Assembly (NCBI RefSeq): GCF_055900595.2
Contig: NZ_CM148325.1
Direction: 5' to 3' (one strand)
DNA length: 64,000 bases
Position numbers and translations under genes: made by a program. This document shows, one piece after another, positions 8,012 to 58,176 of this stretch. The notes under the pieces are model-generated. The model was given only the letters and a program-made list of their open reading frames with translations. It had not been told where the DNA came from and did not search any database. The number at the start of each line of letters is the position of its first letter. Position 1 is the first letter of the stretch.

Positions 8012-8680
8012 TCCTTCCTCAATCTTGAGTAACCCCGTCGTTGAAGGGTTACTCAATTCATCCTGATTATACGCACTGTCATGGTGCAACTGCTTCAAAT
8101 TAAAACTCTGGTCTGACTTCAAATAATTATCATATTATTTATTTGCGTAACGGGATATCAGAAAAAGATATTTAGCCCATTAATTTATTAGGATGTTTAC
8201 ATCGGATTTGTGATTAAGCGTGGTATTATTTATTAGCGAAACGTTTCTCTCTTGATTTTTTTGCGCATTCATCAATTTTTCTTATTTTAAATTTACAATA
8301 CCTTTGGCGATTGACTTCTCTTTGGGGTGATTGATAGCCGTTAACTGACTGTTTTATGAGAAAAAGTGATATAACTTTTTATTCATTGCATAGCAGAAAA
8401 TGTGATATTGCACGCACTATGTAATAACTTCTCCCATTGGCCTGGAACAACTGAACTTATTGAACTATGTTAGAAAATACGTCAGTTTAAGTATCTGCCT
8501 GAACTGGCAAGGTTAAGCACAATGATATATCGGCGCGTATTCCGTTGCATAAGTGTGCAAAAAAAGTGGAAGACGTATCGAGATTTGTGCGTCTGATCGA
8601 GACATGTTTAAAAATGGCTTGCCATAATTAACGTTGTATGTGATAACAGATTTCGGGTTAAACGAGGTACAGTTCTGTTT

Positions 8681-8824
8681 ATGTGTGGCATTTTCAGTAA
8701 AGAAGTCCTGAGTAAACACGTTGACGTTGAATACCGCTTCTCTGCCGAGCCTTATATTGGTGCCTCATGCAGTAATGTGTCAGTTTTATCTATGTTATGC
8801 CTGCGGGCGAAGAAAACAATCTAA
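8681..8824 (+). CDS. yobF: small protein YobF (47 aa)
   Basis: Translated by hand: [47 protein letters not shown]; immediately upstream of cspC; absent from track (under 60 aa). Confidence 0.85.
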
Positions 8825-8836
8825 GGAATTTTTCAA

Positions 8837-9046
8837 ATGGCAAAGATTAAAGGTCAGGTTAAGTGGTTCAACGAGTCTAAAGGTTTTGGCTTCATCACTC
8901 CGGCTGATGGCAGCAAAGACGTGTTCGTACACTTCTCCGCTATCCAGGGTAATGGCTTCAAAACTCTGGCTGAAGGTCAGAACGTTGAGTTCGAAATTCA
9001 GGACGGCCAGAAAGGTCCGGCAGCTGTTAACGTAACAGCTATCTGA
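8837..9046 (+). CDS. cspC: cold-shock-domain protein CspC
   Basis: 69-aa [40 protein letters not shown]..., canonical CSD RNP motifs. Confidence 0.97.
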
Positions 9047-9091
9047 TCGAATCCACTGATCTGAAGTGTGAAGACACTTCAATCTCGCTAT

Positions 9092-9118
9092 AAAGCCTCG
9101 TCGAATGCGAGGCTTTTT
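9092..9118 (+). terminator. intrinsic terminator downstream of cspC
   Basis: stem aaagcctcg / cgaggcttt followed by a 5-T run. Confidence 0.8.
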
Positions 9119-9211
9119 ACTTTGCTTTATCTTCGCTCCTGGCATTCGGATATTTGCCCGCCGCGTGATTCGCGTTACACTTGCGGACTTTAGTATCCTG
9201 CCGGAGTTGTC

Positions 9212-10021
9212 ATGTCGTTTTCCTGTCCACTTTGCCATCAGCCTCTCTCGCGTGAAAAAAACAGCTATATCTGTCCCCAGCGACATCAGTTTGATATGGC
9301 GAAAGAAGGGTATGTCAACCTGTTGCCTGTTCAGCATAAACGATCTCGTGATCCGGGCGACAGCGCGGAAATGATGCAAGCACGACGCGCATTCTTAGAT
9401 GCCGGACATTATCAGCCGCTGCGTGATGCAATTGTTGCCCAACTGCGGGAACAGCTTGATGAAACGGCCACGGCGGTGCTGGATATCGGCTGTGGTGAAG
9501 GGTATTACACACACGCATTTGCCGATGCGTTGCCCGAAATCACCACGTTTGGTCTGGATGTCTCGAAGGTGGCGATCAAAGCTGCGGCAAAACGCTATCC
9601 GCAGGTCACTTTTTGTGTCGCTTCCAGTCACCGTTTGCCGTTTGCCGATGCCAGCATGAACGCCATTATTCGCATCTATGCGCCGTGTAAAGCAGAAGAA
9701 TTAGCGCGCGTAGTGAAGCCCGGCGGTTGGATCATTACAGCTACGCCGGGACCGCGACATTTGATGGAGCTGAAGGGGCTGATTTACAATGAAGTACATC
9801 TTCATGCACCTCATGCAGAACAACTGGAAGGTTTTACATTACAGCAGAGTGATGAGTTGTGTTATCCGATGCGTCTTCGCGGTGACGAAGCCGTCGCGTT
9901 ATTGCAGATGACGCCGTTTGCCTGGCGAGCGAAGCCAGAAGTCTGGCAAACGCTGGCAGCAAAAGAAGTGTTTGACTGCCAGACGGACTTTAATATTCAC
10001 CTCTGGCAGCGTTCTTATTAA
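9212..10021 (+). CDS. rlmA: 23S rRNA (guanine745-N1)-methyltransferase RlmA
   Basis: 269-aa [31 protein letters not shown]... (zinc-ribbon N-terminus, SAM-MTase fold motif DIGCGEGYY). Confidence 0.95.
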
Positions 10022-10584
10022 CCGTGGAAGTGCGTCCAGAGGATCTGGACGCCGATGCCGATCAGTACCAGCCCGCCGAGAATTTCCGCTTTCTTCCCAA
10101 TAATTGAGCCGATAAAGCGACCAACCATCATCCCTAATGTCGACATAATCAAGGTTGCACAACCAATGGCTAATGCGGTCGCGATAATGTTGACCTGCAG
10201 GAAGGCCAGACCAACCCCCACAGCCATCGCATCCAGGCTGGTGGCAATCGCGGTGGTTACCAGTAGCCAGAAACCGTGTCGACGGCGCGGTTCTTCATCT
10301 TCATCATCTGCACCACGAAAACCCTCGATAATCATTCGCCCACCGAGGAATATCAGCAGCACAAACGCAATCCAGTGATTCCATTCAAGGACAAACCGGC
10401 TGGCTAACATGCCCATTCCCCAGCCGATCAGCGGCGTCAGGGTTTCGACGGCACCAAAAATAAGGCCAGTTCGCAAAGCTTCAGAAAATTTCGGTTTATG
10501 GAGGGTGGCACCTTTACCGATTGATGCAGCAAATGCATCCATCGACATACCAAACGCAAGAAGAACAGTAGCAGTGATATTCAT
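10018..10584 (-). CDS. mntP: manganese efflux pump MntP
   Basis: Track ORF 10018..10638 trimmed to ATG at 10584 ([21 protein letters not shown]...), AGGA Shine-Dalgarno 10 nt upstream; 188 aa. Confidence 0.9.
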
Positions 10585-10699
10585 GACAACGTCCTGACCG
10601 GGGTATCCATAAAACACATCATCGCCCCCAGCAAACATGCATACATGAACAACAAACCGCGATGATTTTCGCGTTCATGCAGGCATAGCGATTGATGTG

Positions 10700-10805
10700 C
10701 ATATGGTCTCGCCTGACTGAAAGTGTTCAGTTCGTACGTGCCACGTTTTGCAACGAGTATGTTGACACGTACATTTCCGGAATCTGGAAATCGGCTACTC
10801 CCCAA
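10700..10805 (-). promoter_or_regulatory. yybP-ykoY family Mn(II) riboswitch aptamer in mntP 5' leader
   Basis: Minus-strand leader carries conserved GGGGAGUAGCC ... GUCAACAUAC ... CAGGCGAGACC blocks typical of the yybP-ykoY motif, upstream of mntP. Confidence 0.7.
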
Positions 10806-11012
10806 ATGAGGGCGCAACATTAACATATTTTTAGAATATAAAACAACTGTTGGGATATATTATTTCAGCAGTTAATTGATAACGATTTTCATTTAGATTT
10901 ATATATCAATGAAACGTTAAAATAAATAACAAATAAGGGATGGGATAATATAGCCTAAGCTATGTCTGATTATTTAAAATACAGCAAACATAGCTTTGGC
11001 TAAATTCATAAC

Positions 11013-11471
11013 TTATTGAGTGGAAACAAGAAGTTTATAAATTTTCTCCAGGTCGTCGATATTTCGAACGCGGATTAACAGCCGGCGCTGTTCTAATTGC
11101 ATCACTAACACGCCATCTTCAGACAAGTTCATCGCTTTAATTCGACTATATTCAATCCAGACATTGGCGAAGAAAAAACCTTTTTGTTTAAAGATGATCT
11201 TCGGAACGCGGATCCAGAAAATATAAAACCCCATTAGAGCCAGTGCACTTAATAACCATGTCGTTATTTGCGCGCCATGATTCGTGACGTTGTTATAGAT
11301 AAGAATGACAATCAGTCCTACGAAGATAACGCTGTCGATGCGGCCACGTCGGAGCAAAGGAATTGCCAGCAGGGTGGGGCCGTTGCGGCGGGGCATGATG
11401 AACTGATCGTAGATCGCGAAGGTCAGGAGTGCGGCGATAAAAAGAATCAGTACCAGGTCCGTGATTGTCAT
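11013..11471 (-). CDS. yobD: UPF0266 membrane protein YobD
   Basis: 152-aa [27 protein letters not shown]..., multi-TM. Confidence 0.85.
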
Positions 11472-11525
11472 TAATCCTCCAGATAAAAAAACGGGGCCAA
11501 AAGGCCCCGGTAGTGTACAACAGTC

Positions 11526-12386
11526 TTACAGTCCCAGCAGGCCGCAAGCATAACCCGCGATACCGATGACGAAGAAGCCAACGATGATCCACAGCGGATT
11601 AACTTTTTTGCGCAGCAGCCACATACAAGCAAAGGTCAGCAGTAGCGGTACCAGGCCCGGCATTAACTGGTCAAGAATAGTCTGGACAGTGGTAACGTGT
11701 TCTTTGCCCGTCTGGTCAGTAATGCGAGAGACAACCAGCGGGATGTTGACATGTGTCCACTTGTTAACCAATGCCCCCATGACAAACAGGCCGAGAATAG
11801 ACGCCCCTTCCGTCAGTTTTTGCAGGAAGCCGCCACCCATATCTTTAACGATATCGATACCTTTGGAGTAACCATACGCTACGCCGTAGTAACGGGTTGC
11901 CAGACGCACCAGGTTAAACAGGATGAAGAACAGAAGCGGACCTAACAGGCTGCCGCTCATCGCGATACCGGCACCCAGCGCTGCAAATACCGGACGTACG
12001 GTTCCCCAGAAGATCGGGTCGCCCACACCAGCCAGCGGGCCCATCAAACCAACTTTGATACCGTTGATAGCACCGTCATCGATCTCTGCGCCATTAGCAC
12101 GCTGTTCTTCCAGCGCCAGGGTTACGCCGAGAATCGGCGCAGCCACGAACGGCTGGGTGTTAAAGAACTCCAGGTGACGGCGAATAGCTTGTTTACGAGC
12201 TTCGTTGTTCTCAGGGTAGAGGCGACGAATTGCCGGTACCATAGAGAAGCAGAAACCCAGTGCCTGCATACGTTCGAAGTTCCATGAACCCTGGAAGAGG
12301 TTAGAACGCAGGAAGACGCCACGAATATCACTTTGAGTGAGTTTTTTCTCGGTGGTAGTTTGAGTTGTATCAACCATTTCGCTCAC
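11526..12386 (-). CDS. manZ: mannose PTS EIID component ManZ
   Basis: ORF translation ...VDTTQTTTEKKLTQSDIRGVFLRSNLFQGSWNFERMQALGF...; true start may be the Met 3 codons in (12377). Confidence 0.92.
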   Translation of the reverse strand: MSEMVDTTQTTTEKKLTQSDIRGVFLRSNLFQGSWNFERMQALGFCFSMVPAIRRLYPENNEARKQAIRRHLEFFNTQPFVAAPILGVTLALEEQRANGAEIDDGAINGIKVGLMGPLAGVGDPIFWGTVRPVFAALGAGIAMSGSLLGPLLFFILFNLVRLATRYYGVAYGYSKGIDIVKDMGGGFLQKLTEGASILGLFVMGALVNKWTHVNIPLVVSRITDQTGKEHVTTVQTILDQLMPGLVPLLLTFACMWLLRKKVNPLWIIVGFFVIGIAGYACGLLGL

Positions 12387-12389
12387 CTG

Positions 12390-13190
12390 TTAGTCCAGTT
12401 CGTTATCGAGATCGTTGTTACCAGCGGCCTGAGCAGGCGCACCGGCTACGCGGTTGTATTTCGGGCTAAGTTGGATGTAGAGCACTGCCATAACAGTACC
12501 AATCACACCCAGAGCAACCAGGTTAAAGTTGGTGAATGCTGCGGTTACGAAGCCGAGGTAGAAGAACGGCATCAGGTAGCCAGCACGCATCATGTTGATA
12601 ACCATCGCATAACCAACCACCACGATCATGCCACCGGCGATATTCAGACCATTGGTCACCACTTCCGGAATCGCATTCAGCATGTTCTGGACTTCGCTGG
12701 TACCAACAGACAGCGCAACGATGACGGCCGGAATAGCCACACGCATTGCTTGCAGGAACAGAGAAGAAACGTGGATCCAGGAAATCGCTGTCAGGTTGCC
12801 GTTATCAGCAGCCTTATCCGCAGCGTGCTGGAAAGCAACGGTAATAGTACGAACGATGATGGTCAGTACCTGACCTGCAGCAGCCAGAGGGATTGCCAGT
12901 GCGATACCCGCACCAATGCTCTGATGACCTGCGATAACCAGAATGGTAGAAATGATAGAAGCCAGAGCGGCGTCAGGCGCAACGGCAGCACCGATGTTCA
13001 TCCAGCCCAGCGCGATCATTTCCAGCGTACCACCGATAATAATACCGGTTTTCATATCGCCAAGAACGATACCCACCAGGGTACACGCGATTAGCGGACG
13101 GTGAAACTGAAATTCATCGAGGATTGATCCCATACCTGCGATACAGGCTACGATAAATACCAGCACAATTTGAAGAGTGGTAATCTCCAT
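12390..13190 (-). CDS. manY: mannose PTS EIIC component ManY
   Basis: 266-aa ORF MEITTLQIVLVFIVACIAGMGSILDEFQFHRPLIACTLVG... Confidence 0.95.
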   Translation of the reverse strand: MEITTLQIVLVFIVACIAGMGSILDEFQFHRPLIACTLVGIVLGDMKTGIIIGGTLEMIALGWMNIGAAVAPDAALASIISTILVIAGHQSIGAGIALAIPLAAAGQVLTIIVRTITVAFQHAADKAADNGNLTAISWIHVSSLFLQAMRVAIPAVIVALSVGTSEVQNMLNAIPEVVTNGLNIAGGMIVVVGYAMVINMMRAGYLMPFFYLGFVTAAFTNFNLVALGVIGTVMAVLYIQLSPKYNRVAGAPAQAAGNNDLDNELD

Positions 13191-26524: not shown

Positions 26525-28210
26525 TTGAAGAAGGTTTGGCTTAACCGTTATCCCGCGGACGTTCCGACGGAGATCAACCCTGACCGTTATCAATCTCTGG
26601 TAGATATGTTTGAGCAGTCGGTCGCGCGCTACGCCGATCAACCCGCGTTTGTGAATATGGGGGAGGTGATGACCTTCCGCAAACTGGAAGAACGCAGTCG
26701 CGCGTTTGCCGCTTATTTGCAACAAGGGTTGGGACTGAAGAAAGGCGATCGCGTTGCGTTGATGATGCCTAATTTATTGCAATATCCGGTGGCGCTGTTT
26801 GGCATTTTGCGTGCCGGGATGATCGTTGTAAACGTTAACCCGTTGTATACCCCGCGTGAGCTGGAGCATCAGCTTAACGATAGCGGCGCATCAGCGATTG
26901 TTATCGTGTCTAATTTTGCCCACACTCTGGAAAAAGTGGTTGATAAAACCGCCGTTCAGCACGTTATTCTGACCCGTATGGGCGATCAGCTATCCACGGC
27001 AAAAGGCACGGTAGTCAACTTCGTTGTTAAATACATCAAGCGTCTGGTGCCGAAATACCATCTTCCAGATGCCATCTCATTTCGCAGCGCACTGCATAAC
27101 GGCTACCGGATGCAGTACGTCAAACCCGAACTGGTGCCAGAAGATTTAGCTTTCCTGCAATATACCGGCGGTACCACTGGTGTGGCGAAGGGCGCGATGC
27201 TGACTCACCGCAATATGCTGGCGAATCTGGAACAAGTTAACGCGACTTATGGGCCGCTGTTGCATCCGGGCAAAGAGCTGGTGGTGACGGCACTGCCGCT
27301 GTATCACATTTTTGCTCTGACCATTAACTGCCTGCTGTTTATTGAACTGGGTGGGCAGAACCTGCTTATCACTAACCCGCGCGATATTCCGGGGTTGGTA
27401 AAAGAGTTAGCGAAATATCCGTTTACCGCGATAACCGGCGTTAACACCTTGTTCAATGCGTTGCTGAACAATAAAGAGTTCCAGCAGCTGGATTTCTCCA
27501 GTCTGCATCTTTCTGCAGGCGGTGGTATGCCTGTTCAACAAGTGGTGGCTGAACGTTGGGTGAAACTGACCGGACAGTATCTGCTGGAAGGTTATGGCCT
27601 GACCGAGTGTGCGCCGCTGGTCAGCGTTAACCCGTATGATATTGATTATCATAGTGGTAGCATCGGTTTGCCGGTGCCGTCGACGGAAGCCAAACTGGTG
27701 GATGATGATGATAATGAAGTACCACCGGGTCAACCGGGTGAGCTTTGTGTCAAAGGACCGCAGGTGATGCTGGGTTACTGGCAGCGTCCGGATGCTACCG
27801 ATGAAATCATCAAAAATGGCTGGTTACACACCGGCGATATCGCGGTGATGGATGAAGAAGGATTCCTGCGCATTGTCGATCGTAAAAAAGACATGATTCT
27901 GGTTTCCGGTTTTAATGTCTATCCCAACGAAATTGAAGATGTCGTCATGCAGCATCCTGGCGTACAGGAAGTCGCAGCTGTTGGCGTACCTTCCGGCTCC
28001 AGTGGTGAAGCGGTGAAAATCTTCGTAGTGAAAAAAGATCCATCGCTTACCGAAGAGTCACTGGTGACCTTTTGCCGCCGTCAGCTCACGGGCTACAAAG
28101 TACCGAAGCTGGTGGAGTTTCGTGATGAGTTACCGAAATCTAACGTCGGAAAAATTTTGCGACGAGAATTACGTGACGAAGCGCGCGGCAAAGTGGACAA
28201 TAAAGCCTGA
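26525..28210 (+). CDS. fadD: long-chain fatty acid-CoA ligase FadD
   Basis: Track ORF 26459..28210 trimmed to TTG at 26525 so the product begins (M)[19 protein letters not shown]..., 561 aa; AMP-binding motif [12 protein letters not shown]. Confidence 0.93.
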
Positions 28211-28227
28211 GCGTTAAGTCAGTCGTC

Positions 28228-28255
28228 AGACGCCGGTTAATCCGGCGTTTTTTTT
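28228..28255 (+). terminator. intrinsic terminator downstream of fadD
   Basis: stem cgccgg / ccggcg with TTAAT loop followed by an 8-T run. Confidence 0.8.
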
Positions 28256-28279: not shown

Positions 28280-29407
28280 TTGAATTACCAAATGATTACC
28301 ACGGACGATGCGCTGGCTTCTTTGTGTGAAGCCGTCCGTGCCTTTCCGGCGATAGCCCTGGATACTGAATTTGTTCGTACGCGCACCTATTACCCGCAGC
28401 TGGGTCTAATTCAACTTTTTGATGGTGAGCATCTGGCGCTAATTGATCCTCTCGGGATCTCCGACTGGTCACCGCTGAAAGCGATACTGCGCGATCAGTC
28501 CATCACAAAATTTCTCCATGCGGGCAGTGAAGATCTGGAAGTGTTCCTCAATGTCTTTGGCGAATTACCACAACCCTTGATTGACACGCAAATCCTTGCT
28601 GCCTTCTGCGGACGCCCGATGTCATGGGGTTTCGCTTCCATGGTGGAAGAGTATTCCGGCGTTACGCTGGACAAGAGTGAATCGCGCACCGACTGGCTGG
28701 CCAGACCGCTGACCGAACGTCAGTGTGAATACGCAGCGGCGGATGTCTGGTATCTGTTACCGATCACCGCAAAGCTTATGGTAGAAACGGAGGCCTCCGG
28801 CTGGCTACCTGCGGCGCTGGATGAATGCCGCCTGATGCAAATGCGTCGTCAGGAAGTCGTTGCACCGGAAGATGCCTGGCGTGATATCACCAATGCCTGG
28901 CAGTTACGCACACGCCAACTGGCCTGTCTGCAACTGTTAGCCGACTGGCGACTGCGCAAGGCGCGGGAGCGCGATCTGGCGGTGAACTTTGTCGTGCGTG
29001 AAGAGCATTTGTGGTCGGTAGCGCGTTATATGCCGGGAAGTTTAGGCGAACTGGACAGCCTGGGCTTATCCGGTAGCGAAATCCGCTTTCACGGTAAAAC
29101 GCTGCTGGCGCTGGTGGAAAAAGCGCAGACATTGCCGGAAGAGGCCTTACCGCAGCCGATGCTTAACCTGATGGACATGCCGGGTTATCGTAAAGCGTTT
29201 AAAGCGATTAAGTCGCTGATTACTGACGTGAGCGAAACACACAAGATCAGCGCCGAATTGCTGGCATCGCGTCGGCAAATCAACCAGCTGCTGAACTGGC
29301 ACTGGAAACTGAAACCGCAGAACAATTTGCCGGAGCTGATTTCCGGCTGGCGTGGTGAGCTGATGGCGGAAGCATTACACAATTTATTGCAGGAATATCC
29401 ACAGTAA
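28280..29407 (+). CDS. rnd: ribonuclease D
   Basis: 375-aa ORF starting at TTG (rnd is known to use a UUG start); (M)NYQMITTDDALASLCEAVRAFPAIALDTEFVRTRTYYPQLGLIQL... Confidence 0.92.
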   Translation: MNYQMITTDDALASLCEAVRAFPAIALDTEFVRTRTYYPQLGLIQLFDGEHLALIDPLGISDWSPLKAILRDQSITKFLHAGSEDLEVFLNVFGELPQPLIDTQILAAFCGRPMSWGFASMVEEYSGVTLDKSESRTDWLARPLTERQCEYAAADVWYLLPITAKLMVETEASGWLPAALDECRLMQMRRQEVVAPEDAWRDITNAWQLRTRQLACLQLLADWRLRKARERDLAVNFVVREEHLWSVARYMPGSLGELDSLGLSGSEIRFHGKTLLALVEKAQTLPEEALPQPMLNLMDMPGYRKAFKAIKSLITDVSETHKISAELLASRRQINQLLNWHWKLKPQNNLPELISGWRGELMAEALHNLLQEYPQ

Positions 29408-29413
29408 AATCTT

Positions 29414-29455
29414 CCGAAGCCGGACTGGGCGCGCTCAGCGCCACATCCGGCTTCG
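29414..29455. other. nested inverted repeat between convergent rnd and yeaX
   Basis: 11-bp perfect outer stem ccgaagccgga / tccggcttcgg enclosing a second GC-rich palindrome (ggcgcgctcagcgcc); no adjacent U-run. Confidence 0.5.
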
Positions 29456-29460
29456 GCAAA

Positions 29461-30426
29461 CTACAAATCCAACACCAGGCGTTTACCCTTCGCGCGTGAA
29501 CAACAGATCAACATACTTTGCTGGCTGGCACGCTCTTCATCGCTAAAATACTGATCCCGATGGTCAGCTTCACCTTCCAGTATTGCCGTTTCGCAGGTTC
29601 CGCATACCCCTTCACGACATAAACATTCCACTTTAGCTGCTTTACTATTTTCAATAACCTGCAAAATAGTCATCTCTTCCGGCACCACAAACTCTTTTCC
29701 GGAACGGGCAAGCACCAGCGTAAATGCATCGCCGGTTTTGTCTTCGATAGCAAATTGCTCAAAGTGCAGCGTATCGGTGGCGATGTCCAGACGCGCAGCT
29801 TCACTTCTTACCGCCTCATTTAGCGCCTCGGGGCCACAGGTATAAACATGTGTGCCAGGTTCGATATCCGCCAATAATCGCGCTAATTCCAGTCGTGTTC
29901 CGGTTGATGAATGATGCAAATGGACTTTCTCGGCCTGCGGATGCTGGACTAGCTCATCACGAAATGCGCAACTTTCTGGATTTCGCGAGCAGTAATGTAA
30001 CTGCCAGTCGACGTCGCTGTATTGCAACTCTGCCATGTGCGACAGGAAAGGGGTGATACCAATACCGCCCGCGATAAACAGATGCTTTCTGGCCGAGGGA
30101 ATTAGCGCAAACAGATTATTAGGCGTCGAAATGGTCAACCGATCGCCTGCTTTCACCTGCTGATGCAAAAAGCGCGAACCACCGCGCGAGTTTTCTTCCA
30201 GCCGAACGGCAATCTGATAACGAGACGTATCGAGTGGCGAACTCAGCAGTGAGTACGCATTGCTGTACTGGTTATCACCATCGCTCATCTGCACAATGAT
30301 GTGACTTCCTCCAGTAAACGCAGGTAATGGTTTGCCATCGGTTGCCACCAGCGTGAAGCGTTTCACCTGTTCGGTAAGGGGGTCAACCTGACTCACCTGT
30401 ACTTCAAACATTTGGTAGTTTGACAT
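29461..30426 (-). CDS. yeaX: carnitine monooxygenase reductase subunit (YeaX/CntB)
   Basis: 321-aa ORF; C-terminal plant-type [2Fe-2S] Cys cluster (CREGVCGTCE) and flavin reductase-like N-terminus. Confidence 0.9.
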   Translation of the reverse strand: MSNYQMFEVQVSQVDPLTEQVKRFTLVATDGKPLPAFTGGSHIIVQMSDGDNQYSNAYSLLSSPLDTSRYQIAVRLEENSRGGSRFLHQQVKAGDRLTISTPNNLFALIPSARKHLFIAGGIGITPFLSHMAELQYSDVDWQLHYCSRNPESCAFRDELVQHPQAEKVHLHHSSTGTRLELARLLADIEPGTHVYTCGPEALNEAVRSEAARLDIATDTLHFEQFAIEDKTGDAFTLVLARSGKEFVVPEEMTILQVIENSKAAKVECLCREGVCGTCETAILEGEADHRDQYFSDEERASQQSMLICCSRAKGKRLVLDL

Positions 30427-30481
30427 TGCTGTACTCCATCAAAAATCAGCCCAGCGGCGGAAAATACCGCCGCCGATGTCA

Positions 30482-31606
30482 TTAGTCCTTAAACACCTGC
30501 GCCAGCAGATTATGGAAATGGGCGATACCATGTTCGGAAATTCCGCTACCGCTACTGTCGGCCATGATGCGCCCCTGACCACGATAGCCACGCGATTTCA
30601 GCCCTTTCTGTACGCTTTCAACCAGACGTAAATCTTCCGGACGGAACACGTCGCGATACCACTCAATCAGTGATTTTTGCTCGTCGGTTAACTCTTCATT
30701 GGTGAAGTAAATATCGTAGTTTTGCAGGGTAGTTTCAGAATCCACCGGGAATTCATAAATGACCGTCATCATGCCTTTGAGCGGGGTGACGTTCAGCATC
30801 GTGCACGGCCACAGCCAGAAACCATGGAATGCCGCATCCGTGCCCTCTTCGAATTTGAAAGACTGTTCGGACGGTTTGGCGAAACCGTACTGTAGCGTCC
30901 AGTTACCGTGCATGGTGTGCCAGTAACGATCAACCTGAACGGAGTCGGAGAAACCTGGATGCGCCGGACCACAGTGATAGCACTCGAGATAGTTATCGAC
31001 AATGTTCTTCCAGTTGGCAGGCGTGCGGGTGGTAAAGCGAGCCGCCAGTTTCAGGTTGTGGACTTCCGGGCAGGCTTCCAGCACTTTCGCCCCCAGACCG
31101 GGTAACTGATCTTCTACGCTGGTGGCGTTGGGGTCCATGTTGATGAAGACGAATCCGGCATATTCTTCCAGACGTACTGGAACCAGTTGCGCTTTGTCGC
31201 TATCGAAATTGGCGACGTTTTCGCAGTTACGCGCATGGGCCAGGTTGCCATCGAGTTTGAATGCCCAGGCGTGATACGGGCAGGTAATCACATTTTTCGC
31301 TTTCCCTTCGCCGCTCAATAACTGATGACCACGGTGCGGGCAAACGTTATAGAACGCGCGCAAAACCTTATCACGACCGCGTACCAGCACGATGCTTTCG
31401 CCAATGATCTCACGCGTCACATAATCATTGGCATTCGCCAGTTCGCTGCTGTGAGCGACGCAAATCCAGCTTTTGGCGAAGACGTTCTCTTTTTCGTGTT
31501 CAAACGCGTTCTGATCGGTATAAAAACGGGCAGGAATGGTCCACGCCTCTTGTGGGTTAGCGCAAAAATTTTCGGGTAGTACAAAGTCAGGGCTCAGATT
31601 GCTCAT
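30482..31606 (-). CDS. yeaW: carnitine monooxygenase oxygenase subunit, Rieske type (YeaW/CntA)
   Basis: Track ORF 30482..31726 trimmed to ATG at 31606 (MSNLSPDFVLPENF...); Rieske motif CPHRGH ... CPYHAW. Confidence 0.9.
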   Translation of the reverse strand: MSNLSPDFVLPENFCANPQEAWTIPARFYTDQNAFEHEKENVFAKSWICVAHSSELANANDYVTREIIGESIVLVRGRDKVLRAFYNVCPHRGHQLLSGEGKAKNVITCPYHAWAFKLDGNLAHARNCENVANFDSDKAQLVPVRLEEYAGFVFINMDPNATSVEDQLPGLGAKVLEACPEVHNLKLAARFTTRTPANWKNIVDNYLECYHCGPAHPGFSDSVQVDRYWHTMHGNWTLQYGFAKPSEQSFKFEEGTDAAFHGFWLWPCTMLNVTPLKGMMTVIYEFPVDSETTLQNYDIYFTNEELTDEQKSLIEWYRDVFRPEDLRLVESVQKGLKSRGYRGQGRIMADSSGSGISEHGIAHFHNLLAQVFKD

Positions 31607-31637
31607 AGGGATACCTTTATCGTTAGGATGATGGCGT

Positions 31638-33248
31638 TCAGTTGTCGCCTTTGAATACGGTTCCAGCAGGAAGCACTGGCGCTTTTCCCGGGGCTTCAAC
31701 CGGTGTCTGCGGGAGATAATGTTCAACTTGATGAGCTGGAATGTCGGCGTAATCCTGTTTCAGCCAGCGAATAAATCCGCCGACTTTCACCAGTAAAATG
31801 GCGAGGAAGGGAAGGGCAGTGAGGACGACGGTAGTTTTCATTGTTTCCAGCGAAGCACCGGTAAACAAGATGGAAAGCGGGATCAGAGTGATCACTACGC
31901 ACCAGAACAGACGCAGCCCACGGTCAGGATCGTCACCTTCCTGGAGATTACGCGTGCTGGTCGCCGCCATGGTGTAAGCCACCGCATCCATATGCGAGGC
32001 GAGGAAGATAATCATCACGCCCAGATAGGCCGCGAGGAACAATTTACCGGCTGGTAGAGACATCAGAACTTGCTGCACAGCTGTTTCGCCGCCCAGTGTT
32101 TCCAGCACCTGTGGGACGTTGATTACGCCATTGATAAACTGATGAATGGCATAGCTTTCCATTACGCCGAAGAAGAACCAGCAACCGACGGTGCTGCCGA
32201 GGATCAGTCCCCAGATAACTTCTTTAATCTTACGACCGCGCGAAACTCGGGTGACAAACATTGCTACGCCAGGGGTGTATGAGATCCACCACAGCCAGTA
32301 GAAAACGGTCCAGTTGCGGGTAAATGAACCATCGCCAAGCGGATCGGTGAATAAGCTCATTTGCAGGAAGTTTTGCGTGGTCAGGCCGATGGCATTGATG
32401 ATGCTGTTGGTAATAAATTCGGTTGGACCGACAATCAGCACCAGTAATGGCAGCAGGAATGCGCCCCAGCCAACCATTTTGCTTAGACGTTGCAAACCGT
32501 TGTTGATACCAATCCACGAGCTTAGGCAAAAAATGCCGCCGGAAAGCAGGATCACAAATGCCTGTACGGTAAAGTTATCGGGTAAACCGGTCAGCGCGGA
32601 AAGCCCACGGGTAAAGGTTGCTGCGGTGACAACAAGGGAAATGGTCAGTGCGCCGACAGTGGCGATCAGGAACATCAAATCGACCAGTTTCCCCCACGGG
32701 CCTTGCGGGCGAACGCCGGTAATAGCAGCAATAATGCCGGAAAGGCTCAGCCCTTTATTTTTCCGCACATGAAAGTGATAAGCCATGATTAATGAGGCCA
32801 GCGTATAAGTTGCCCAGGCGCTGATGCCCCAGTGGAAGAAGGAGTAGGGAACGCTAAATTCGAGTGCCTGTTGTGAACGCGGTGCGATATTTAATCCAGG
32901 CGTTTGATAATAATAGGCCCATTCAGCAACCCCCCAATAAAGCGTAGAAGAACCTAAACCTGCACAAATAAACATAAACAGCCAGGAGAGCGTGCTGTAT
33001 TCCGGTTTTCCTTCGCCAAGACGAATATTGCCGTATTTACTGGTGGCTAAATAAATCACCAGTCCCATTGCCAGCAAAACCAATACCTGTACGGCGGAAC
33101 CTAACGTACGCGTAACAAAAGTGTATATTGCGTTGGCCGCGTCGGCCGATTGTTGTGGGAAAAGGCTTAATGCAGCTGCGATGAAAAGAATGGCCACCAG
33201 GCTGATGCTTATCAACGGCACATCTTTTTTCTTAACATTGCTCATCAT
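31638..33248 (-). CDS. yeaV: BCCT-family transporter YeaV
   Basis: 536-aa multi-TM ORF with BCCT-like N-terminus; start taken from track, true start may be internal. Confidence 0.82.
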
Positions 33249-33497
33249 GAGTCATCTCCTGGGCATAAAAGCCCGTCTCTGGCTTTTGCCAGTTGTAATT
33301 ATTTGCAGGGTATGAGTTGTATGTTGTGTTTAACAAATTGATTATTTACATGTTACATAAATTAAACAATTAAGAATACGGAAAGCCATAAAACACGAAA
33401 CGGAAACAATAAAAGGTGAAATGACGCAGGTTATTTACTGCAAAGAACGAATAAAAAAACCGCGTCAGTGACGCGGTTCAAATAAACTGGTTTGACC

Positions 33498-34583
33498 TTA
33501 ACGCAAAAGAATTTTGCAAATCGCGTCGGCAACCTGTGGCGTGGTGGCATTGCCTTTCATATCAGGTGTTTTCGGCCCGTGAGCAATCACTTCTTCAATC
33601 GCGGCCAGAATACCGTTATGCGCTTGCTGGAAACGCTCATCGCCATTGCCGAGAAAATCGAGCATCATTGCACCGGCCCAAATCGTGGCGATAGGGTTAG
33701 CAATATTTTTCCCGTAGATATCCGGCGCGGAACCGTGGACTGGCTCGAAGAGCGACGGGAAAGTGCGTTCGGGATTCAGGTTGGCGGATGGGGCAATGCC
33801 AATGGTGCCGGTGCAGGCCGGGCCAAGATCGGAAAGGATATCGCCAAACAAATTGGACGCCACTACCACATCGAAGCGTTCCGGCTGCATCACAAAACGT
33901 GCGCAGAGAATGTCAATATGCTGCTTGTCCCAGCGGATCTCCGGGTAATTCTCAGCCATTGCTTCCACTCGCTCATCCCAGTACGGCATGCTGATGGCTA
34001 AACCGTTCGATTTAGTGGCAGAAGTTAGCGTCTTACGTGGGCGGCTTTGCGCAAGTTCAAAGGCATAGCGCAAAATACGATCGACACCACGACGAGTAAA
34101 TACCGATTCCTGAATGACGACTTCATGCTCTGTACCTTCATTCACTCTACCGCCGAGCGAGGAATATTCGCCTTCGGTGTTTTCCCTGACCACGTAAAAA
34201 TCGATGTCGCCAGGCTGTTTTCCCGCCAGCGGGCAGGGAACGCCAGGAAAGAGACGAACCGGGCGCAGGTTGACGTACTGGTCGAACTCACGACGAAATT
34301 TCAGCAGCGAACCCCACAACGAAATATGGTCCGGAACGGTATCCGGCCAGCCGACGGCACCAAAATAGATGGCGTCGAAACGGCTAAGTTGCTCATGCCA
34401 GTCGTCCGGCATCATTTTACCGTGATGGCTGTAATACTCGCAGCTCGCCCACTCCATTTGCTCAAAACTCAAGGCGAAGCCCCAGCGCTCAGCGGCAGCC
34501 TGTAACACGCGAATCCCTTCAGGAAGGACTTCTTTGCCAATCCCGTCTCCCGGGATCGCAGCAATACGCATCGTTTTCATCAT
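33498..34583 (-). CDS. dmlA: D-malate/3-isopropylmalate dehydrogenase DmlA (YeaU)
   Basis: 361-aa ORF MMKTMRIAAIPGDGIGKEVLPEG..., isocitrate/isopropylmalate dehydrogenase family. Confidence 0.9.
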   Translation of the reverse strand: MMKTMRIAAIPGDGIGKEVLPEGIRVLQAAAERWGFALSFEQMEWASCEYYSHHGKMMPDDWHEQLSRFDAIYFGAVGWPDTVPDHISLWGSLLKFRREFDQYVNLRPVRLFPGVPCPLAGKQPGDIDFYVVRENTEGEYSSLGGRVNEGTEHEVVIQESVFTRRGVDRILRYAFELAQSRPRKTLTSATKSNGLAISMPYWDERVEAMAENYPEIRWDKQHIDILCARFVMQPERFDVVVASNLFGDILSDLGPACTGTIGIAPSANLNPERTFPSLFEPVHGSAPDIYGKNIANPIATIWAGAMMLDFLGNGDERFQQAHNGILAAIEEVIAHGPKTPDMKGNATTPQVADAICKILLR

Positions 34584-34685
34584 TGGGTTCTCACTTCCTG
34601 ACCATCAAAATTGACAATACCCTCATCCTATAATTGACTGAAAAGGAATTAATCCCCGTAACTGGTGAAACATAAAACACGAATC

Positions 34686-35609
34686 ATGAATAATTTACCG
34701 CTGCTGAACGATTTGCGCGTCTTTATGCTGGTGGCTCGCCGGGCTGGTTTTGCCGCTGTGGCGGAAGAATTGGGCGTTTCACCGGCGTTCGTCAGCAAGC
34801 GCATCGCCTTGCTGGAGCAAACGCTAAACGTGGTGTTGTTACACCGCACCACCCGCCGCGTCACCATTACCGAAGAAGGAGAGCGGATTTATGAATGGGC
34901 GCAGCGGATTTTGCAGGATGTTGGTCAAATGATGGACGAACTTTCTGACGTGCGTCAGGTGCCGCAGGGGATGCTGCGTATTATCAGCAGCTTTGGTTTT
35001 GGACGACAGGTAGTGGCTCCGGCGTTATCAGCGCTGGCGAAAGCGTATCCGCAACTGGAGTTACGTTTTGATGTGGAAGACCGACTGGTCGATTTGGTCA
35101 ATGAAGGCGTCGATCTCGATATTCGCATTGGCGATGATATCGCCCCTAATTTAATCGCCCGCAAACTGGCGACTAATTACCGCATTCTCTGCGCGTCGCC
35201 GGAATTTATTGCGCAACATGGCGCGCCGAAACATTTAACCGATCTTTCTGCATTGCCGTGCCTGGTCATTAAAGAGCGCGATCATCCTTTTGGTGTCTGG
35301 CAATTACGCAATAAAGAAGGCCACCATGCGATTAAAGTTACCGGCCCACTGTCGTCTAATCATGGAGAAATTGTCCATCAGTGGTGTCTCGATGGGCAGG
35401 GGATTGCTCTGCGCTCCTGGTGGGATGTTAGCGAAAACATTGCCAGTGGTCATTTAGTACAAGTGCTACCGGAATATTACCAGCCAGCAAATGTCTGGGC
35501 CGTTTATGTTTCAAGGCTGGCGACGTCAGCGAAAGTGCGGATAACGGTAGAATTTTTACGCCAGTATTTTGCCGAGCACTACCCGAATTTTTCACTGGAC
35601 CACGCCTGA
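34686..35609 (+). CDS. dmlR: LysR-type regulator DmlR (YeaT)
   Basis: Track ORF 34665..35609 trimmed to ATG at 34686 (MNNLPLLNDLRVFMLVARRAGFAAVAEELGVSPAFVSKRI...); divergent from dmlA. Confidence 0.9.
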   Translation: MNNLPLLNDLRVFMLVARRAGFAAVAEELGVSPAFVSKRIALLEQTLNVVLLHRTTRRVTITEEGERIYEWAQRILQDVGQMMDELSDVRQVPQGMLRIISSFGFGRQVVAPALSALAKAYPQLELRFDVEDRLVDLVNEGVDLDIRIGDDIAPNLIARKLATNYRILCASPEFIAQHGAPKHLTDLSALPCLVIKERDHPFGVWQLRNKEGHHAIKVTGPLSSNHGEIVHQWCLDGQGIALRSWWDVSENIASGHLVQVLPEYYQPANVWAVYVSRLATSAKVRITVEFLRQYFAEHYPNFSLDHA

Positions 35610-54795: not shown

Positions 54796-54901
54796 ATGAG
54801 TTGTCTAGTATTTAAGCCTGTTATTAAGGGAGGGCAAATAGACTTGTTCGGACGTCGTGTTTTAGCTGCAAGTAGGTTAAATGCAACACTGACAAGTATT
54901 A

Positions 54902-54938
54902 TCTGGCCTACAATGTCATTGAGGAAATGTAGGCCAGA
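54902..54938. repeat. 11-bp perfect inverted repeat in the yeaC-pncA junction
   Basis: tctggcctaca ... (15-nt loop) ... tgtaggccaga; no adjacent U-run on either strand. Confidence 0.6.
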
Positions 54939-54955
54939 GATGAATCCAACTAATA

Positions 54956-56755: not shown

Positions 56756-57478
56756 TTAATCCTGCAACGCATAGGTTACGGTGGTGACTACGCGTACCGT
56801 TTTATTAATCGCCGTAGGATCATCTTCATCACTGCCACTGGCGAAGATCTGGAACACGCCTTGTGAGGCATCGCTAATTGACCCCACCTGGCTACCTGAG
56901 TCCGTTGCAAATTGTAATGCTGCGTTGCGTGCATCTTTGGTGGCGGCGGCAATCATCTCAGCGCGCAGTGCGCCAATACCATTAAAGCGATAGGCGACTT
57001 TGCTCTCAGCGATAGCGCCCTCCGTAGCGACTTGCAGTTCGTTTAATTTCGCGACGACTTTTTCGACAGCAGCAACATTATGGGTTTTTATCGTCACTGA
57101 CCCGTCTGCGTTATAGCGTGGCATTGTGGGATCATCTTTCAGATAAAAGGAATCTGTTCGCTTGCTTGTCCATTGGCCCAGGGTTATCTCTTTCTCGTTA
57201 ATCCCCTGAGCATTGAGTTCGGCAACAATTTTTTTCTGCGCGTCTTCCAGTTTCGGGAACAGTTCGCCGGGAATATTACCCTTAAAGTTAATCGCAATTG
57301 TTAATTCTGCCGTATCTGCGCGAACTTCTTTTTCAGAAAGCCCACGCACATTTACATAACGGTTATTGGTTTTCAAATGTTTAACACCATCGCCAACAAA
57401 ATAACCACAGGCGCTAATCCCCAGTCCGAGGACGATAGCGGCAATTAAAGAGGGGGCCTTATTCACTGATGACTCCAT
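56756..57478 (-). CDS. SIMPL/DUF541-like putative lipoprotein
   Basis: C-terminal ~240 codons of track ORF 56756..57925; ATG at 57478 (MESSVNK...) or, better supported, GTG at 57466 with GGAG 6 nt upstream giving (M)NKAPSLIAAIVLGLGISAC lipobox signal; family call from recalled SIMPL architecture. Confidence 0.55.
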   Translation of the reverse strand: MESSVNKAPSLIAAIVLGLGISACGYFVGDGVKHLKTNNRYVNVRGLSEKEVRADTAELTIAINFKGNIPGELFPKLEDAQKKIVAELNAQGINEKEITLGQWTSKRTDSFYLKDDPTMPRYNADGSVTIKTHNVAAVEKVVAKLNELQVATEGAIAESKVAYRFNGIGALRAEMIAAATKDARNAALQFATDSGSQVGSISDASQGVFQIFASGSDEDDPTAINKTVRVVTTVTYALQD

Positions 57479-57717
57479 ATCAGATGCTAAATGAGCAAGG
57501 GAATGTAGTGGAGAGAGGGAGTGAAAGACAGTCCGATTCAGGAGTGTGGCCGACAGCATATCGGCCACATTTTTGTGCACAGAAAACCCCCAGCTAGGCT
57601 GGGGGTTCCGGAAAGCTTTCAGCTTTGAGCCAGTTATTAAAACCCCTTTTGATTTGTTAAAACACCTTGCGGTCTGGCAACTGCAAGTGTCAAACAAGAA
57701 ATCAAAAGGGGGTCCCA

Positions 57718-58176
57718 ATGGGGGACGAAAAGAGCTTAGCGCACACCCGCTGGAACTGTAAATATCACATAGTTTTTGCGCCGAAATACCGAAGACTGGC
57801 GTTTTACGGAGAGAAGCGTAGGGCGATAGGCAGTATTTTGAGAAAGCTGTGTGAGTGGAAAAGCGTACGGATTCTGGAAGCAGAGTGCTGCGCAGATCAT
57901 ATCCATATGCTTGTGGAAATCCCACCCAAAATGAGCGTATCCGGCTTTATGGGATATCTGAAAGGGAAAAGCAGTCTGATGCTTTACGAGCAGTTTGGGG
58001 ATTTGAAATTCAAATACAGAAACAGGGAGTTCTGGTGCCGAGGGTACTATGTCGATACGGTGGGTAAGAACACGGCGAAGATACAGGACTACATAAAGCA
58101 CCAGCTTGAAGAGGATAAAATGGGGGAGCAGTTATCGATTCCATATCCGGGCAGCCCGTTTACGGGCCGTAAGTAA
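57718..58176 (+). CDS. tnpA: IS200 transposase TnpA (HUH/Y1 family)
   Basis: Track ORF 57667..58176 trimmed to ATG at 57718: MGDEKSLAHTRWNCKYHIVFAPKYRR...HIHMLVEIPPK...; HUH motif (HIHML) and catalytic-Tyr region recognisable. Confidence 0.92.
   Translation: MGDEKSLAHTRWNCKYHIVFAPKYRRLAFYGEKRRAIGSILRKLCEWKSVRILEAECCADHIHMLVEIPPKMSVSGFMGYLKGKSSLMLYEQFGDLKFKYRNREFWCRGYYVDTVGKNTAKIQDYIKHQLEEDKMGEQLSIPYPGSPFTGRK

Follow-up and report, generated by a model that had tools for sequence, protein, structure and literature searches.

The locus at positions 29461–33248 raises the question of whether it encodes an intact system for the cleavage of dietary carnitine to trimethylamine (TMA), and which role such a system would play in its host. 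The window, i.e., the whole 64-kb stretch of DNA that was analyzed, is E. coli chromosome, and RefSeq already names the three genes yeaV, yeaW, and yeaX. With a probability of roughly 0.9, we read them as the chromosomal E. coli operon for an aerobic two-component carnitine monooxygenase (CntA/CntB type, EC 1.14.13.239) with a dedicated BCCT transporter. The gene set is known and well studied in E. coli, and it is ordinary here save for the full-length yeaV, a form that has partly been lost from laboratory strains. A preliminary description of this DNA had likewise seen a known CntA/CntB system and no novelty, which agrees with the purification and characterization of E. coli YeaX and YeaW (PMC9508527).

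Gene layout and identity of the locus

According to the open reading frame list of the window, three minus-strand frames tile the interval 29461–33248 exactly. Neither frameshifts nor internal stops were found in yeaV, yeaW, or yeaX, and the genes are separated by 31 nt (yeaV–yeaW) and 55 nt (yeaW–yeaX). The interval and the co-directional arrangement thus stand as first described, to which the minus strand can now be added. Together with their two upstream neighbors, the genes are:

29461..30426, minus strand: yeaX (cntB), NADH-dependent FMN/plant-type [2Fe-2S] reductase of the phthalate-dioxygenase-reductase type, 321 aa
30482..31606, minus strand: yeaW (cntA), catalytic Rieske/mononuclear-iron oxygenase subunit, 374 aa from ATG
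31638..33248, minus strand: yeaV, BCCT-family transporter, 536 aa, full-length allele
33498..34583, minus strand: dmlA, D-malate/tartrate dehydrogenase (decarboxylating), Pfam Iso_dh, TIGR02089 at 565 bits
34686..35609, plus strand: dmlR, divergent LysR-type regulator, Pfam HTH_1 and LysR_substrate, named DmlR by PGAP

The mechanically called yeaW frame starts further upstream, with a TTG (31726). The region matches E. coli NZ_CP098223.1 with 100% identity, and PGAP there names the products "BCCT family transporter YeaV", "carnitine monooxygenase, oxygenase subunit YeaW", and "carnitine monooxygenase reductase subunit YeaX". Most E. coli differ from it at approximately 3% of the nucleotides, and an identity of at least 99% is reached in only 10 of the 5426 complete genomes. 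Compared with K-12, dN/dS ranges from 0.017 to 0.087 across yeaV, yeaW, and yeaX and from 0.015 to 0.087 across all five genes from dmlR to yeaX, which points to strong purifying selection on the entire set between the source strain and K-12.

Oxygenase, reductase, and transporter

YeaW contains the Pfam domains Rieske (1e-23) and Ring_hydroxyl_A (5e-23) and matches the crystal structure of A. baumannii CntA (PDB 6y8j) with E=4.5e-196 and 73% identity. The motif CPHRGH...CPYHAW, from which a Rieske oxygenase had initially been deduced, is found within VCPHRGHQLL...ITCPYHAWAF. Its Rieske ligands C89-x-H91-x17-C109-x2-H112 align exactly with C86, H88, C106, and H109 of CntA, and the 2-His-1-carboxylate triad of the mononuclear iron, H211/H216/D325 (CntA H208, H213, D323), is kept. 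The same applies to the bridging glutamate E208 (CntA E205), the pi-cation residue Y206 (CntA Y203), the cysteine pair C209/C212 (CntA C206/C209), and the pocket residues F260, Y317, F321, Y228, N272, and Y297 (CntA F258, Y315, F319, Y225, N270, and Y295). Overall, 19 of 19 functional residues checked are the same as in CntA, including the carnitine contacts near the 3-hydroxyl, and the docking residues R83/K104/K117/E330 are present. The roles of the residues aligned with CntA were taken from work on that protein, in which E205 mutants revealed the bridging function in intersubunit electron transfer and an aromatic residue at the pi-cation position was described as the signature of group Va, with Asn in group Vb (PMC7948474). 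Between yeaV and rnd, there is no gene for a small beta subunit, and the only frames in this stretch are yeaW, yeaX, and antisense or overlapping frames. Judged by ligands, triad, bridging Glu, Tyr, pocket, and this alpha-only gene content, YeaW is assigned to the group Va CntA/YeaW oxygenases. It differs from K-12 YeaW by two amino acids, none of them at a functional position (99.5% identity, dN/dS 0.017).

In YeaX, one chain carries FAD_binding_6 (9–103), NAD_binding_1 (117–207), and Fer2 (240–313, 6e-14), and it aligns end to end with PDB 2pia (E=7e-57) and 6kbh (E=1e-62). The domain scan proposed in the preliminary description therefore recovered both Rieske and FNR-like domains with scores far beyond chance. 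All cluster cysteines are in place (C270-x4-C275-x2-C278-x29-C308), bearing out the [2Fe-2S] motif noticed earlier, as are the FMN contacts E77 and S84, the docking residues R271, K313, and D320, and likewise H221, T277, and E279. In total, YeaX keeps 18 of the 18 residues named in a mutagenesis study of the E. coli protein, which defined the roles of cluster, FMN, and docking residues and described its cofactors as FMN plus one [2Fe-2S] cluster of the plant type (PMC9508527). None of its 10 amino acid differences from K-12 affects a functional position. By domain order, ligands, and FMN and docking residues, YeaX is classified as a CntB/YeaX reductase of the PDR type, class IA. Neither in this protein nor in YeaW was a Rieske or [2Fe-2S] ligand lost, and the catalytic residues checked, whose integrity had been proposed as a test, are all kept. 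Gene names and the conversion of carnitine to trimethylamine as originally suggested are likewise supported by the PGAP names, the 6y8j match, and the conserved residues.

The third protein, YeaV, is covered by Pfam BCCT with E=4e-121 (protein 14–499, model 3–485 of 485), so that the transporter claim also held up. It scores 1028 bits against the NCBIfam equivalog NF007412 (cut-off 647) over residues 1–536 of 536, and its first hydrophobic helix spans aa 12–30. The gene is preceded by the Shine–Dalgarno (SD) sequence GGAG, 7 nt ahead of the ATG. With CaiT, DddT, and BetP, YeaV shares a full-length BCCT fold and the trimethylammonium aromatic box, here W140/W145/W320/W321/Y324 (CaiT W142, W147, W323, W324, Y327). 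Its homology to CaiT, the E. coli L-carnitine/gamma-butyrobetaine antiporter, with 344 bits to the CaiT model and PDB matches to 2wsx/3hfx at E=1e-69, could suggest a substrate/product antiporter (carnitine exchanged for a product) instead of an ion-coupled importer. However, 344 bits fall short of the cut-off of 541 of the CaiT equivalog NF002887, the identity is only 29%, and among solved structures the DMSP transporter DddT, not CaiT, comes closest. Moreover, CaiT Met331 and Arg262, which stand in for the Na1 and Na2 ions in a study that also assigned the aromatic box roles (PMC3442516), are replaced by Val328 and Val259 in YeaV. Carnitine uptake by the A. baumannii transporter Aci01347 is energy-dependent (PMC6562126), and YeaV is 55% identical to the BCCT encoded beside cntA at the orthologous position of the A. 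baumannii locus. As we further infer that TMA and the aldehyde are not BCCT-type substrates, an antiport function appears very improbable. YeaV is instead probably an importer of carnitine or quaternary amines, at which, in E. coli, only overexpression metabolomics in K-12, which has the truncated gene, hints.

In the proposed mechanism, L-carnitine, and probably gamma-butyrobetaine too, would be imported by YeaV. The FMN of YeaX would take two electrons from NADH and hand them on singly through the [2Fe-2S] cluster of plant type (C270/C275/C278/C308) to the Rieske cluster of trimeric YeaW (C89/H91/C109/H112), from where they would pass via Glu208 across the subunit interface to the neighbor's mononuclear iron (H211/H216/D325). 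O2 would be activated at this iron. Tyr206 would hold carnitine through a pi-cation contact, and hydroxylation next to the nitrogen would give an intermediate that breaks down to trimethylamine and malic semialdehyde. All steps after import have been shown with near-identical E. coli proteins biochemically (PMC9508527) and with CntA structurally (PMC7948474), and the full conservation of the residues checked supports them for the source strain's proteins. YeaX and YeaW from E. coli KO11FL, the latter a trimer with Rieske and Fe centers, used O2 and NADH to convert L-carnitine to TMA and malic semialdehyde (PMC9508527). The E. coli enzyme was still active at 0.4% O2, and YeaX/YeaW and CntA/CntB cross-complement, with subunits interchangeable in vitro.

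Transcription unit and cluster composition

The non-coding elements around the three genes are the following:

29414..29456, no strand assigned: long hairpin where yeaX and rnd converge, fold −37.2 kcal/mol, z=−5.3, followed by UUUU
30441..30476, minus strand: hairpin in the yeaW–yeaX gap, 10-bp GC-rich stem at 30451–30476, followed by GCTGATTTTT shortly before the yeaX SD (GGAG)
30446..30491, minus strand: site at which the gene for malic-semialdehyde dehydrogenase (msadh) is missing, 46 nt in E. coli compared with approximately 1.5 kb including msadh in K. pneumoniae
33249..33456, minus strand: yeaV upstream region, presumed promoter/operator and 5'UTR, the latter with a pair of small hairpins ahead of the SD
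33457..33479, minus strand: intrinsic terminator after dmlA, GAACCGCGTCACTGACGCGGTTT and then a T-run, fold −16.7 kcal/mol, z=−3.1

The term operon was judged from gene spacing and flanking terminators. Upstream, the 249-nt spacer that sets dmlA and yeaV apart contains a strong intrinsic terminator; downstream, the long hairpin, identical in K-12 and SE11, is likely the bidirectional end of both the yeaX and rnd transcripts. This hairpin may be REP-like. Between these two borders, yeaVWX probably form one transcript. Upstream of yeaV, a simple scan for sigma-70 promoters detected none on the minus strand; E. coli and K. pneumoniae share long conserved blocks in this region. Within the proposed unit, the 71-nt spacer at the yeaW–yeaX hairpin folds with −29.9 kcal/mol (z=−4.1) and gives a terminator-like match; the hairpin is 100% conserved in K-12 and SE11, and K. 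pneumoniae has a different hairpin with T6 at the same place ahead of cntB. This element may serve as a partial terminator or in mRNA stability, and together with its T-run it could end some transcripts. Of the operon claimed in the preliminary description, co-directionality is confirmed, but the single unit rests on spacing and flanking terminators and has a hairpin with a T-run inside it.

The three genes represent the distal half of a cluster in the order dmlR, dmlA, yeaV, yeaW, yeaX, which sequence comparison identifies as orthologous to the Acinetobacter carnitine catabolic cluster, with dmlR as the orthologue of CarR. In Acinetobacter, CarR binds the control region of its own operon in a carnitine-dependent manner, and a DmlA-type dehydrogenase is the downstream enzyme of the carnitine pathway (PMC11353897). 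In four genera (A. baumannii, K. pneumoniae, Psychrobacter, and B. multivorans), cntA and cntB flank an SSADH-like gene (msadh) that the E. coli cluster lacks. In the blastn alignment to the Klebsiella locus, the match stops at window position 30492 and restarts at 30445, skipping Klebsiella positions 9116–10630, and tblastn detected no homologues of msadh or of the acylcarnitine hydrolase gene hyd in the 64-kb window. Since msadh is missing, the aldehyde would need an enzyme encoded elsewhere before DmlA could turn D-malate into pyruvate, and the full catabolic route in E. coli is thus unproven. The 31-nt gap between yeaV and yeaW holds no acylcarnitine hydrolase gene. This gene is likewise absent from the Klebsiella and Psychrobacter clusters.

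Physiological role and comparison with known systems

The source strain carries the complete yeaV allele, not the 5'-deleted form of K-12 and BL21, as defined by one further feature:

33121..33343, minus strand: 223-bp segment deleted in K-12 MG1655 and BL21(DE3), at which the blastn alignment of the window with K-12 breaks exactly

Within this segment lie the first 128 nt of yeaV, which encode the first transmembrane helix, as well as the SD and a further 95 nt upstream. Of 5426 complete E. coli genomes, 2930 (54%) have it, O157:H7 genomes among them, while 1439 (27%) have the K-12 deletion junction and 19% lack the cluster; SE11 is intact. In the one ST131 genome inspected, all five genes were deleted together, some genomes have IS insertions, and the annotation of BL21 lists yeaV as a pseudogene "missing N-terminus".

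Whether E. coli uses the pathway physiologically is disputed: BL21, B, and K12 did not grow on carnitine, BL21 extract was without activity, and public expression data indicate little cntA transcription (PMC11353897). No E. coli strain is known from the literature to grow on carnitine. The authors of that study proposed a decaying remnant or another role, e.g., the trimming of intracellular carnitine that serves as a compatible solute, that yields no carbon and little TMA in vivo. The absence of msadh and hyd, the yeaV deletion or cluster loss in the above shares of genomes, the IS insertions, and the failure of the three strains to grow or show activity are in line with such a view. However, the low dN/dS of all five genes and the majority held by the intact form argue against decay, and of the three strains named as failing to grow, two, K-12 and BL21(DE3), carry the deleted allele. 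Furthermore, SE11 with its intact allele is listed as TMA-positive on carnitine, and yeaV and yeaW are upregulated in O157:H7 Sakai at the growth transition and in stationary phase. Taken together, we regard such a remnant or other role as possible but rather doubtful.

A different substrate is less probable still. CntA/YeaW turn over gamma-butyrobetaine about as well as carnitine, so that carnitine may not be the sole or main natural substrate, and a structure of CntA with bound gamma-butyrobetaine exists (PMC7948474). If gamma-butyrobetaine from the cell's own anaerobic cai pathway were the physiological substrate, cleavage would give TMA and succinic semialdehyde, which housekeeping succinate-semialdehyde dehydrogenases can oxidize; msadh would thereby become dispensable and its loss, as we infer, easier to tolerate. 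Nevertheless, the linkage to dmlA and dmlR (D-malate) has been kept under selection and fits a carnitine-to-D-malate route only, and all carnitine contacts of CntA, those near the 3-hydroxyl included, recur in YeaW. Gamma-butyrobetaine as the physiological substrate in place of carnitine is therefore unlikely in our view, and we retain the reading as a carnitine monooxygenase.

With regards to known systems, the closest is the same locus of E. coli K-12 itself, where b1802/b1803 (YeaW/YeaX) share order, lengths (374 and 321 aa), and identical intergenic hairpins. The K. pneumoniae yeaW cluster (locus L011) encodes DmlR, DmlA, YeaV, and YeaW with 88–90% identity, has a conserved yeaV upstream region, and also places a hairpin with a T-run ahead of the reductase gene; however, it retains msadh between yeaW and the reductase gene, and its reductase is only 70% identical to YeaX. 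Outside this cluster type, YeaX shares the flavin, NAD, and C-terminal plant-type ferredoxin layout and the ligand pattern C-x4-C-x2-C...C with phthalate dioxygenase reductase (2PIA) and with self-sufficient P450s in their reductase domains (6KBH, 6LAA). These serve an aromatic-ring dioxygenase or a P450, whereas the partner of YeaX is a quaternary-amine oxygenase, and their flavin motif RxYSL reads NAYSL in YeaX, positions at which K-12 is unsubstituted. Finally, the A. baumannii cluster carR-mdh-bcct-hyd-cntA-msadh-cntB has five orthologues in the same order and orientation in E. coli, with identities of 46, 73, 55, 74, and 52% for DmlR, DmlA, YeaV, YeaW, and YeaX (published values: 45, 72, 56, 72, and 52%). 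The metal ligands, bridging Glu, pi-cation Tyr, and substrate pocket of its CntA (6y8j, 6y8s, 6y9d) equal those of YeaW. It includes both msadh and the acylcarnitine hydrolase gene, which the E. coli cluster lacks, and its mdh–bcct gap measures 20 nt compared with the 249-nt spacer and terminator between dmlA and yeaV. The E. coli genes would hence not form an Acinetobacter-type single operon from mdh through cntB, while the five genes common to both species keep the same arrangement.

Gene content and catalytic integrity

The stretch from 29461 to 33248 is exactly tiled by three open reading frames, all on the minus strand, which confirms the co-directional arrangement that had been proposed from the sequence alone:

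29461-30426, minus strand, yeaX, 321 aa
30482-31606, minus strand, yeaW, 374 aa counted from the ATG (the mechanical ORF reaches a TTG at 31726)
31638-33248, minus strand, yeaV, 536 aa

The genes are separated by 31 nt (yeaV-yeaW) and 55 nt (yeaW-yeaX), and no internal stop codon was found in any of the three ORFs. Domain scans bore out the expected transporter, Rieske oxygenase and ferredoxin-reductase: YeaV carries a full-length BCCT domain (Pfam, E = 4e-121) and matches the NCBIfam YeaV equivalog model over positions 1-536 of 536 with 1028 bits, YeaW contains the Pfam domains Rieske and Ring_hydroxyl_A, and YeaX contains FAD_binding_6, NAD_binding_1 and Fer2. A 414-aa form of YeaW starting at TTG 31726 was rejected, since the 374-aa form aligns with CntA, the Acinetobacter baumannii counterpart, from its residue 4 onwards, and the ATG at 31606 is the start in both PGAP and K-12.

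The window is part of an E. coli chromosome, and the region matches E. coli strain Z0117EC0005 with 100% identity. In that strain, PGAP has already assigned the names yeaV, yeaW ("carnitine monooxygenase, oxygenase subunit") and yeaX ("reductase subunit"), in line with the view of the preliminary description that this is the known CntA/CntB system and not a novelty. The flanking genes match those of K-12: rnd and fadD lie on one side, dmlA, dmlR and leuE on the other. The lineage is uncommon, with an identity of at least 99% over the region in only 10 of 5426 complete genomes and around 97% in most.

YeaW matched A. baumannii CntA, represented by crystal structures such as 6y8j, with E = 4.5e-196, and the two proteins share 73% identity. 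When the residues with roles assigned in the structural paper on CntA (PMC7948474) were mapped onto YeaW, all 19 were found to be conserved. The Rieske ligands C89, H91, C109 and H112 are kept within the quoted motif (C89-P-H91...C109-P-Y-H112), as are the iron triad H211, H216 and D325, the bridging glutamate E208, the π-cation residue Y206 that defines group Va, and the C209/C212 pair. The pocket (F219, Y228, F250, F260, N272, Y297, Y317, F321) completes these 19 residues. In addition, YeaW retains the docking residues R83, K104, K117 and E330.

Phthalate dioxygenase reductase and the reductase domains of self-sufficient P450s could each be aligned to YeaX from end to end. YeaX retains all residues from the E. 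coli YeaX mutagenesis study, namely the cluster cysteines of the predicted [2Fe-2S] motif (C270-x4-C275-x2-C278...C308) as well as E77, S84, H193, Y195, H221, R241, E259, R271, T277, E279, I282, K313, D320 and L321. While the flavin-binding motif of phthalate dioxygenase reductase and the P450 reductase domains is RxYSL, residues 56-60 of YeaX read NAYSL, a position without substitution relative to K-12. Compared to K-12, YeaW differs by 2 and YeaX by 10 substitutions, none of them at the checked functional sites, and dN/dS amounted to 0.017 (yeaW), 0.087 (yeaX) and, for the part of yeaV that both strains have, 0.032. With unbroken ORFs and conserved catalytic residues, there is no sign of the frameshifts or ligand losses that would have spoken against a functional system. 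The operon observation is therefore real, rightly interpreted and already known.

The mechanism of the encoded enzymes would be the one described in the literature for near-identical proteins, from which it is taken over. YeaW assembles into a trimer and contains a Rieske cluster and a mononuclear iron (PMC9508527). Electrons pass from NADH via FMN and the YeaX cluster to the Rieske cluster, and from there through the bridging Glu across the subunit interface to the iron, where O2 is activated and carnitine is converted to trimethylamine (TMA) and malic semialdehyde (PMC9508527; PMC7948474). The E. coli YeaX/YeaW enzyme is active at 0.4% O2, its subunits are exchangeable with CntA/CntB, and γ-butyrobetaine is turned over approximately as well as carnitine.

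With regards to transport, YeaV shares 29% identity with E. coli CaiT and retains the aromatic box for trimethylammonium binding (W140, W145, W320, W321, Y324). In CaiT, Met331 and Arg262 substitute for two sodium ions and thereby render the exchanger ion-independent, whereas YeaV has Val at both positions. The possibility of a CaiT-type antiporter was rejected, as these two residues are absent and the NCBIfam cut-off for CaiT was missed. Among solved structures, YeaV is closest to the DMSP transporter DddT (E = 6.5e-100, compared to 1e-69 for CaiT), and the BCCT gene in the orthologous position of an A. baumannii locus shows 55% identity to YeaV. Since Val occupies both CaiT sites and A. baumannii Aci01347 is a proven energy-dependent importer of carnitine and choline (PMC6562126), we infer that YeaV is an ion-coupled importer of carnitine-like compounds. 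Substrate data for E. coli YeaV come only from K-12 overexpression metabolomics, and the K-12 gene is truncated.

Transcription unit and surrounding sequence

An intrinsic terminator follows dmlA at 33457-33479 (-16.7 kcal/mol, then a T-run) within the region upstream of yeaV, where the spacer after dmlA measures 249 nt. At the other end, a 43-nt hairpin at 29414-29456 (-37 kcal/mol, z = -5.3), which we take to be REP-like, lies between the convergent yeaX and rnd. Because the three genes are flanked by this terminator and hairpin and separated by short gaps, the layout lends good support to a probable operon. An Rfam match to the sRNA sroD (115 bits) lies just upstream of the convergent end, at 28169-28254 on the plus strand, where it occupies the 3' end of fadD ahead of rnd.

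Between yeaW and yeaX, a 10-bp GC-rich hairpin at 30451-30476 is followed five bases on by TTTTT and then by the yeaX Shine-Dalgarno sequence. K-12 and SE11 carry the identical hairpin; in Klebsiella, the corresponding site before the reductase gene is occupied by another hairpin with T6. The element may reduce expression near the reductase gene or stabilise it.

A scan for the sigma-70 consensus over 29200-34800 returned no minus-strand site upstream of yeaV and 2 sites overall, compared to 5.6 expected; inspection by eye revealed only weak -10/-35 candidates upstream of yeaV. Between E. coli and Klebsiella, this region shows strong conservation, which would fit an activator-dependent promoter. 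A long block at 33375-33432 (minus strand) is conserved in both organisms and contains two direct repeats that resemble each other, TTTTATTGTTTCCG and TTTTATGGCTTTCCG. This block, which is kept in K-12, may serve as a binding site for a regulator. In O157:H7 Sakai, both yeaV and yeaW are upregulated at the growth transition or in stationary phase.

Further features were observed elsewhere in the window. A match to the cspA thermoregulator 5'UTR family lies at 8662-9121 (plus strand, Rfam, 136 bits), a region annotated as yobF-cspE on the opposite strand in the closest genome. A match to STnc490 at 57585-57708 (plus strand, Rfam, 146 bits) adjoins an IS200/IS605 tnpA (~57718-58176), and together with a SIMPL-domain protein gene (~56756-57466) both lie between sppA and ansA, where K-12, BL21 and SE11 have nothing. 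At ~54796-54955, yeaC directly follows pncA, and the ~9-kb ydjE-ydjL sugar-utilisation cluster, which BL21 and SE11 carry between these genes, is absent from the window lineage. The otherwise near-identical NZ_CP098223.1 shows 172 differences to the window over the first 29 kb, of which 114 are concentrated at 9-13 kb (rlmA/mntP/yobD/manZ area), and only 5 differing positions in the remaining 30 kb; the accumulation at 9000-13000 looks like a recombination patch.

Allele states at the 5' end of yeaV

Compared to the window, K-12 MG1655 lacks exactly 33121-33343 (223 bp), and the same segment is missing in BL21(DE3). Its coding part, the initial 128 nt of yeaV, specifies the first transmembrane helix (aa 12-30). 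It also contains the Shine-Dalgarno sequence and, upstream of the gene, 95 conserved nt. K-12 YeaV is annotated as a 481-aa protein with an internal TTG start, and BL21(DE3) yeaV is a PGAP pseudogene ("missing N-terminus"). Three states were distinguished among complete genomes.

Allele states of the yeaV region in complete E. coli genomes
223-bp segment present: 2930 of 5426 (54%)
K-12 deletion junction: 1439 of 5426 (27%)
Cluster absent (rnd flank match only): ~1057 of 5426 (~19%), by subtraction

The difference could be an insertion in the window or a deletion in the other strains. Its boundaries have approximately 1 nt in common, and no direct repeats were seen flanking it. An insertion was rejected and the difference is read as a deletion, because the 536-aa YeaV fits the family model end to end and Klebsiella shares the same 5' end.

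With regards to physiology, BL21, B and K12 showed no growth on carnitine (Piskol et al.), and SE11, which has the intact allele, is listed as a TMA producer from carnitine. K-12 and BL21(DE3), two strains in the published negative physiology, are without an intact allele, which is a correlation across few strains. A table entry of K12 as "positive for carnitine" (PMC6200775, citing Rath 2017) was discounted as a physiological test, as K12 DNA served only as a qPCR standard in Rath 2017. We found no paper discussing the 223-bp deletion. On a tentative reading, to which we assign a probability of roughly 0.3, expression of the operon and uptake of carnitine by an E. coli strain depend on this segment. 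If true, the published lack of growth or activity of K-12 and B-lineage laboratory strains on carnitine would reflect a laboratory-lineage deletion rather than E. coli biology, and gut-metagenome TMA estimates that count cntA/yeaW would need three allele classes (intact, 5'-deleted, absent).

Few bacterial routes that lead from dietary carnitine to trimethylamine have been defined, and carnitine monooxygenase is one of them. Trimethylamine gives rise to TMAO, a compound linked to cardiovascular disease. In human gut samples, E. coli is the main cntA carrier (PMC5433236). The window copy itself is no new biology and serves mainly to illustrate the intact allele, in which yeaV is full-length and its upstream region is present. 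The allele polymorphism is the sole element that may be worth following up, as it bears on cntA as a predictor of TMA.

Comparison with clusters of other genera

The three genes form the distal part of a five-gene cluster, in which dmlR is divergent from dmlA-yeaV-yeaW-yeaX. Since all five were deleted together in the inspected ST131 genome, they are treated as one unit: in strain MB1159 (locus L004, 7201-7524) the whole block is gone between rnd and leuE, and all that remains are fragments of dmlA (156 nt) and dmlR (168 nt). The same gene order was found in A. baumannii, K. pneumoniae and a Psychrobacter plasmid, with protein identities to the window of 46-74% for Acinetobacter and 70-90% for Klebsiella, in agreement with published values (PMC11353897). 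This context stems from a protein search of a plasmid collection, several records of which look like chromosome fragments because they carry coaD/hemJ or puuD/yccA.

In Acinetobacter, carnitine is converted to TMA and malic semialdehyde, which is oxidised to D-malate by MSA-DH (malic-semialdehyde dehydrogenase) and further to pyruvate and CO2 by the DmlA orthologue, under the control of the LysR regulator CarR. An SSADH-like msadh gene (~1.45 kb) lies between cntA and cntB in all four other genera (Acinetobacter, Klebsiella, Psychrobacter, Burkholderia). In contrast, E. coli has only 46 nt (30446-30491) where the K. pneumoniae cluster (locus L011, 9116-10630) has ~1.5 kb. In both, a hairpin and T-run directly precede the reductase gene. 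No msadh or hydrolase homologue was found within the 64-kb window. Due to the missing msadh, the E. coli cluster is a reduced version of the Klebsiella and Acinetobacter clusters, which matters for how far cntA in E. coli indicates TMA production. The simplest reading of these alignments would be a loss of msadh in the Escherichia lineage.
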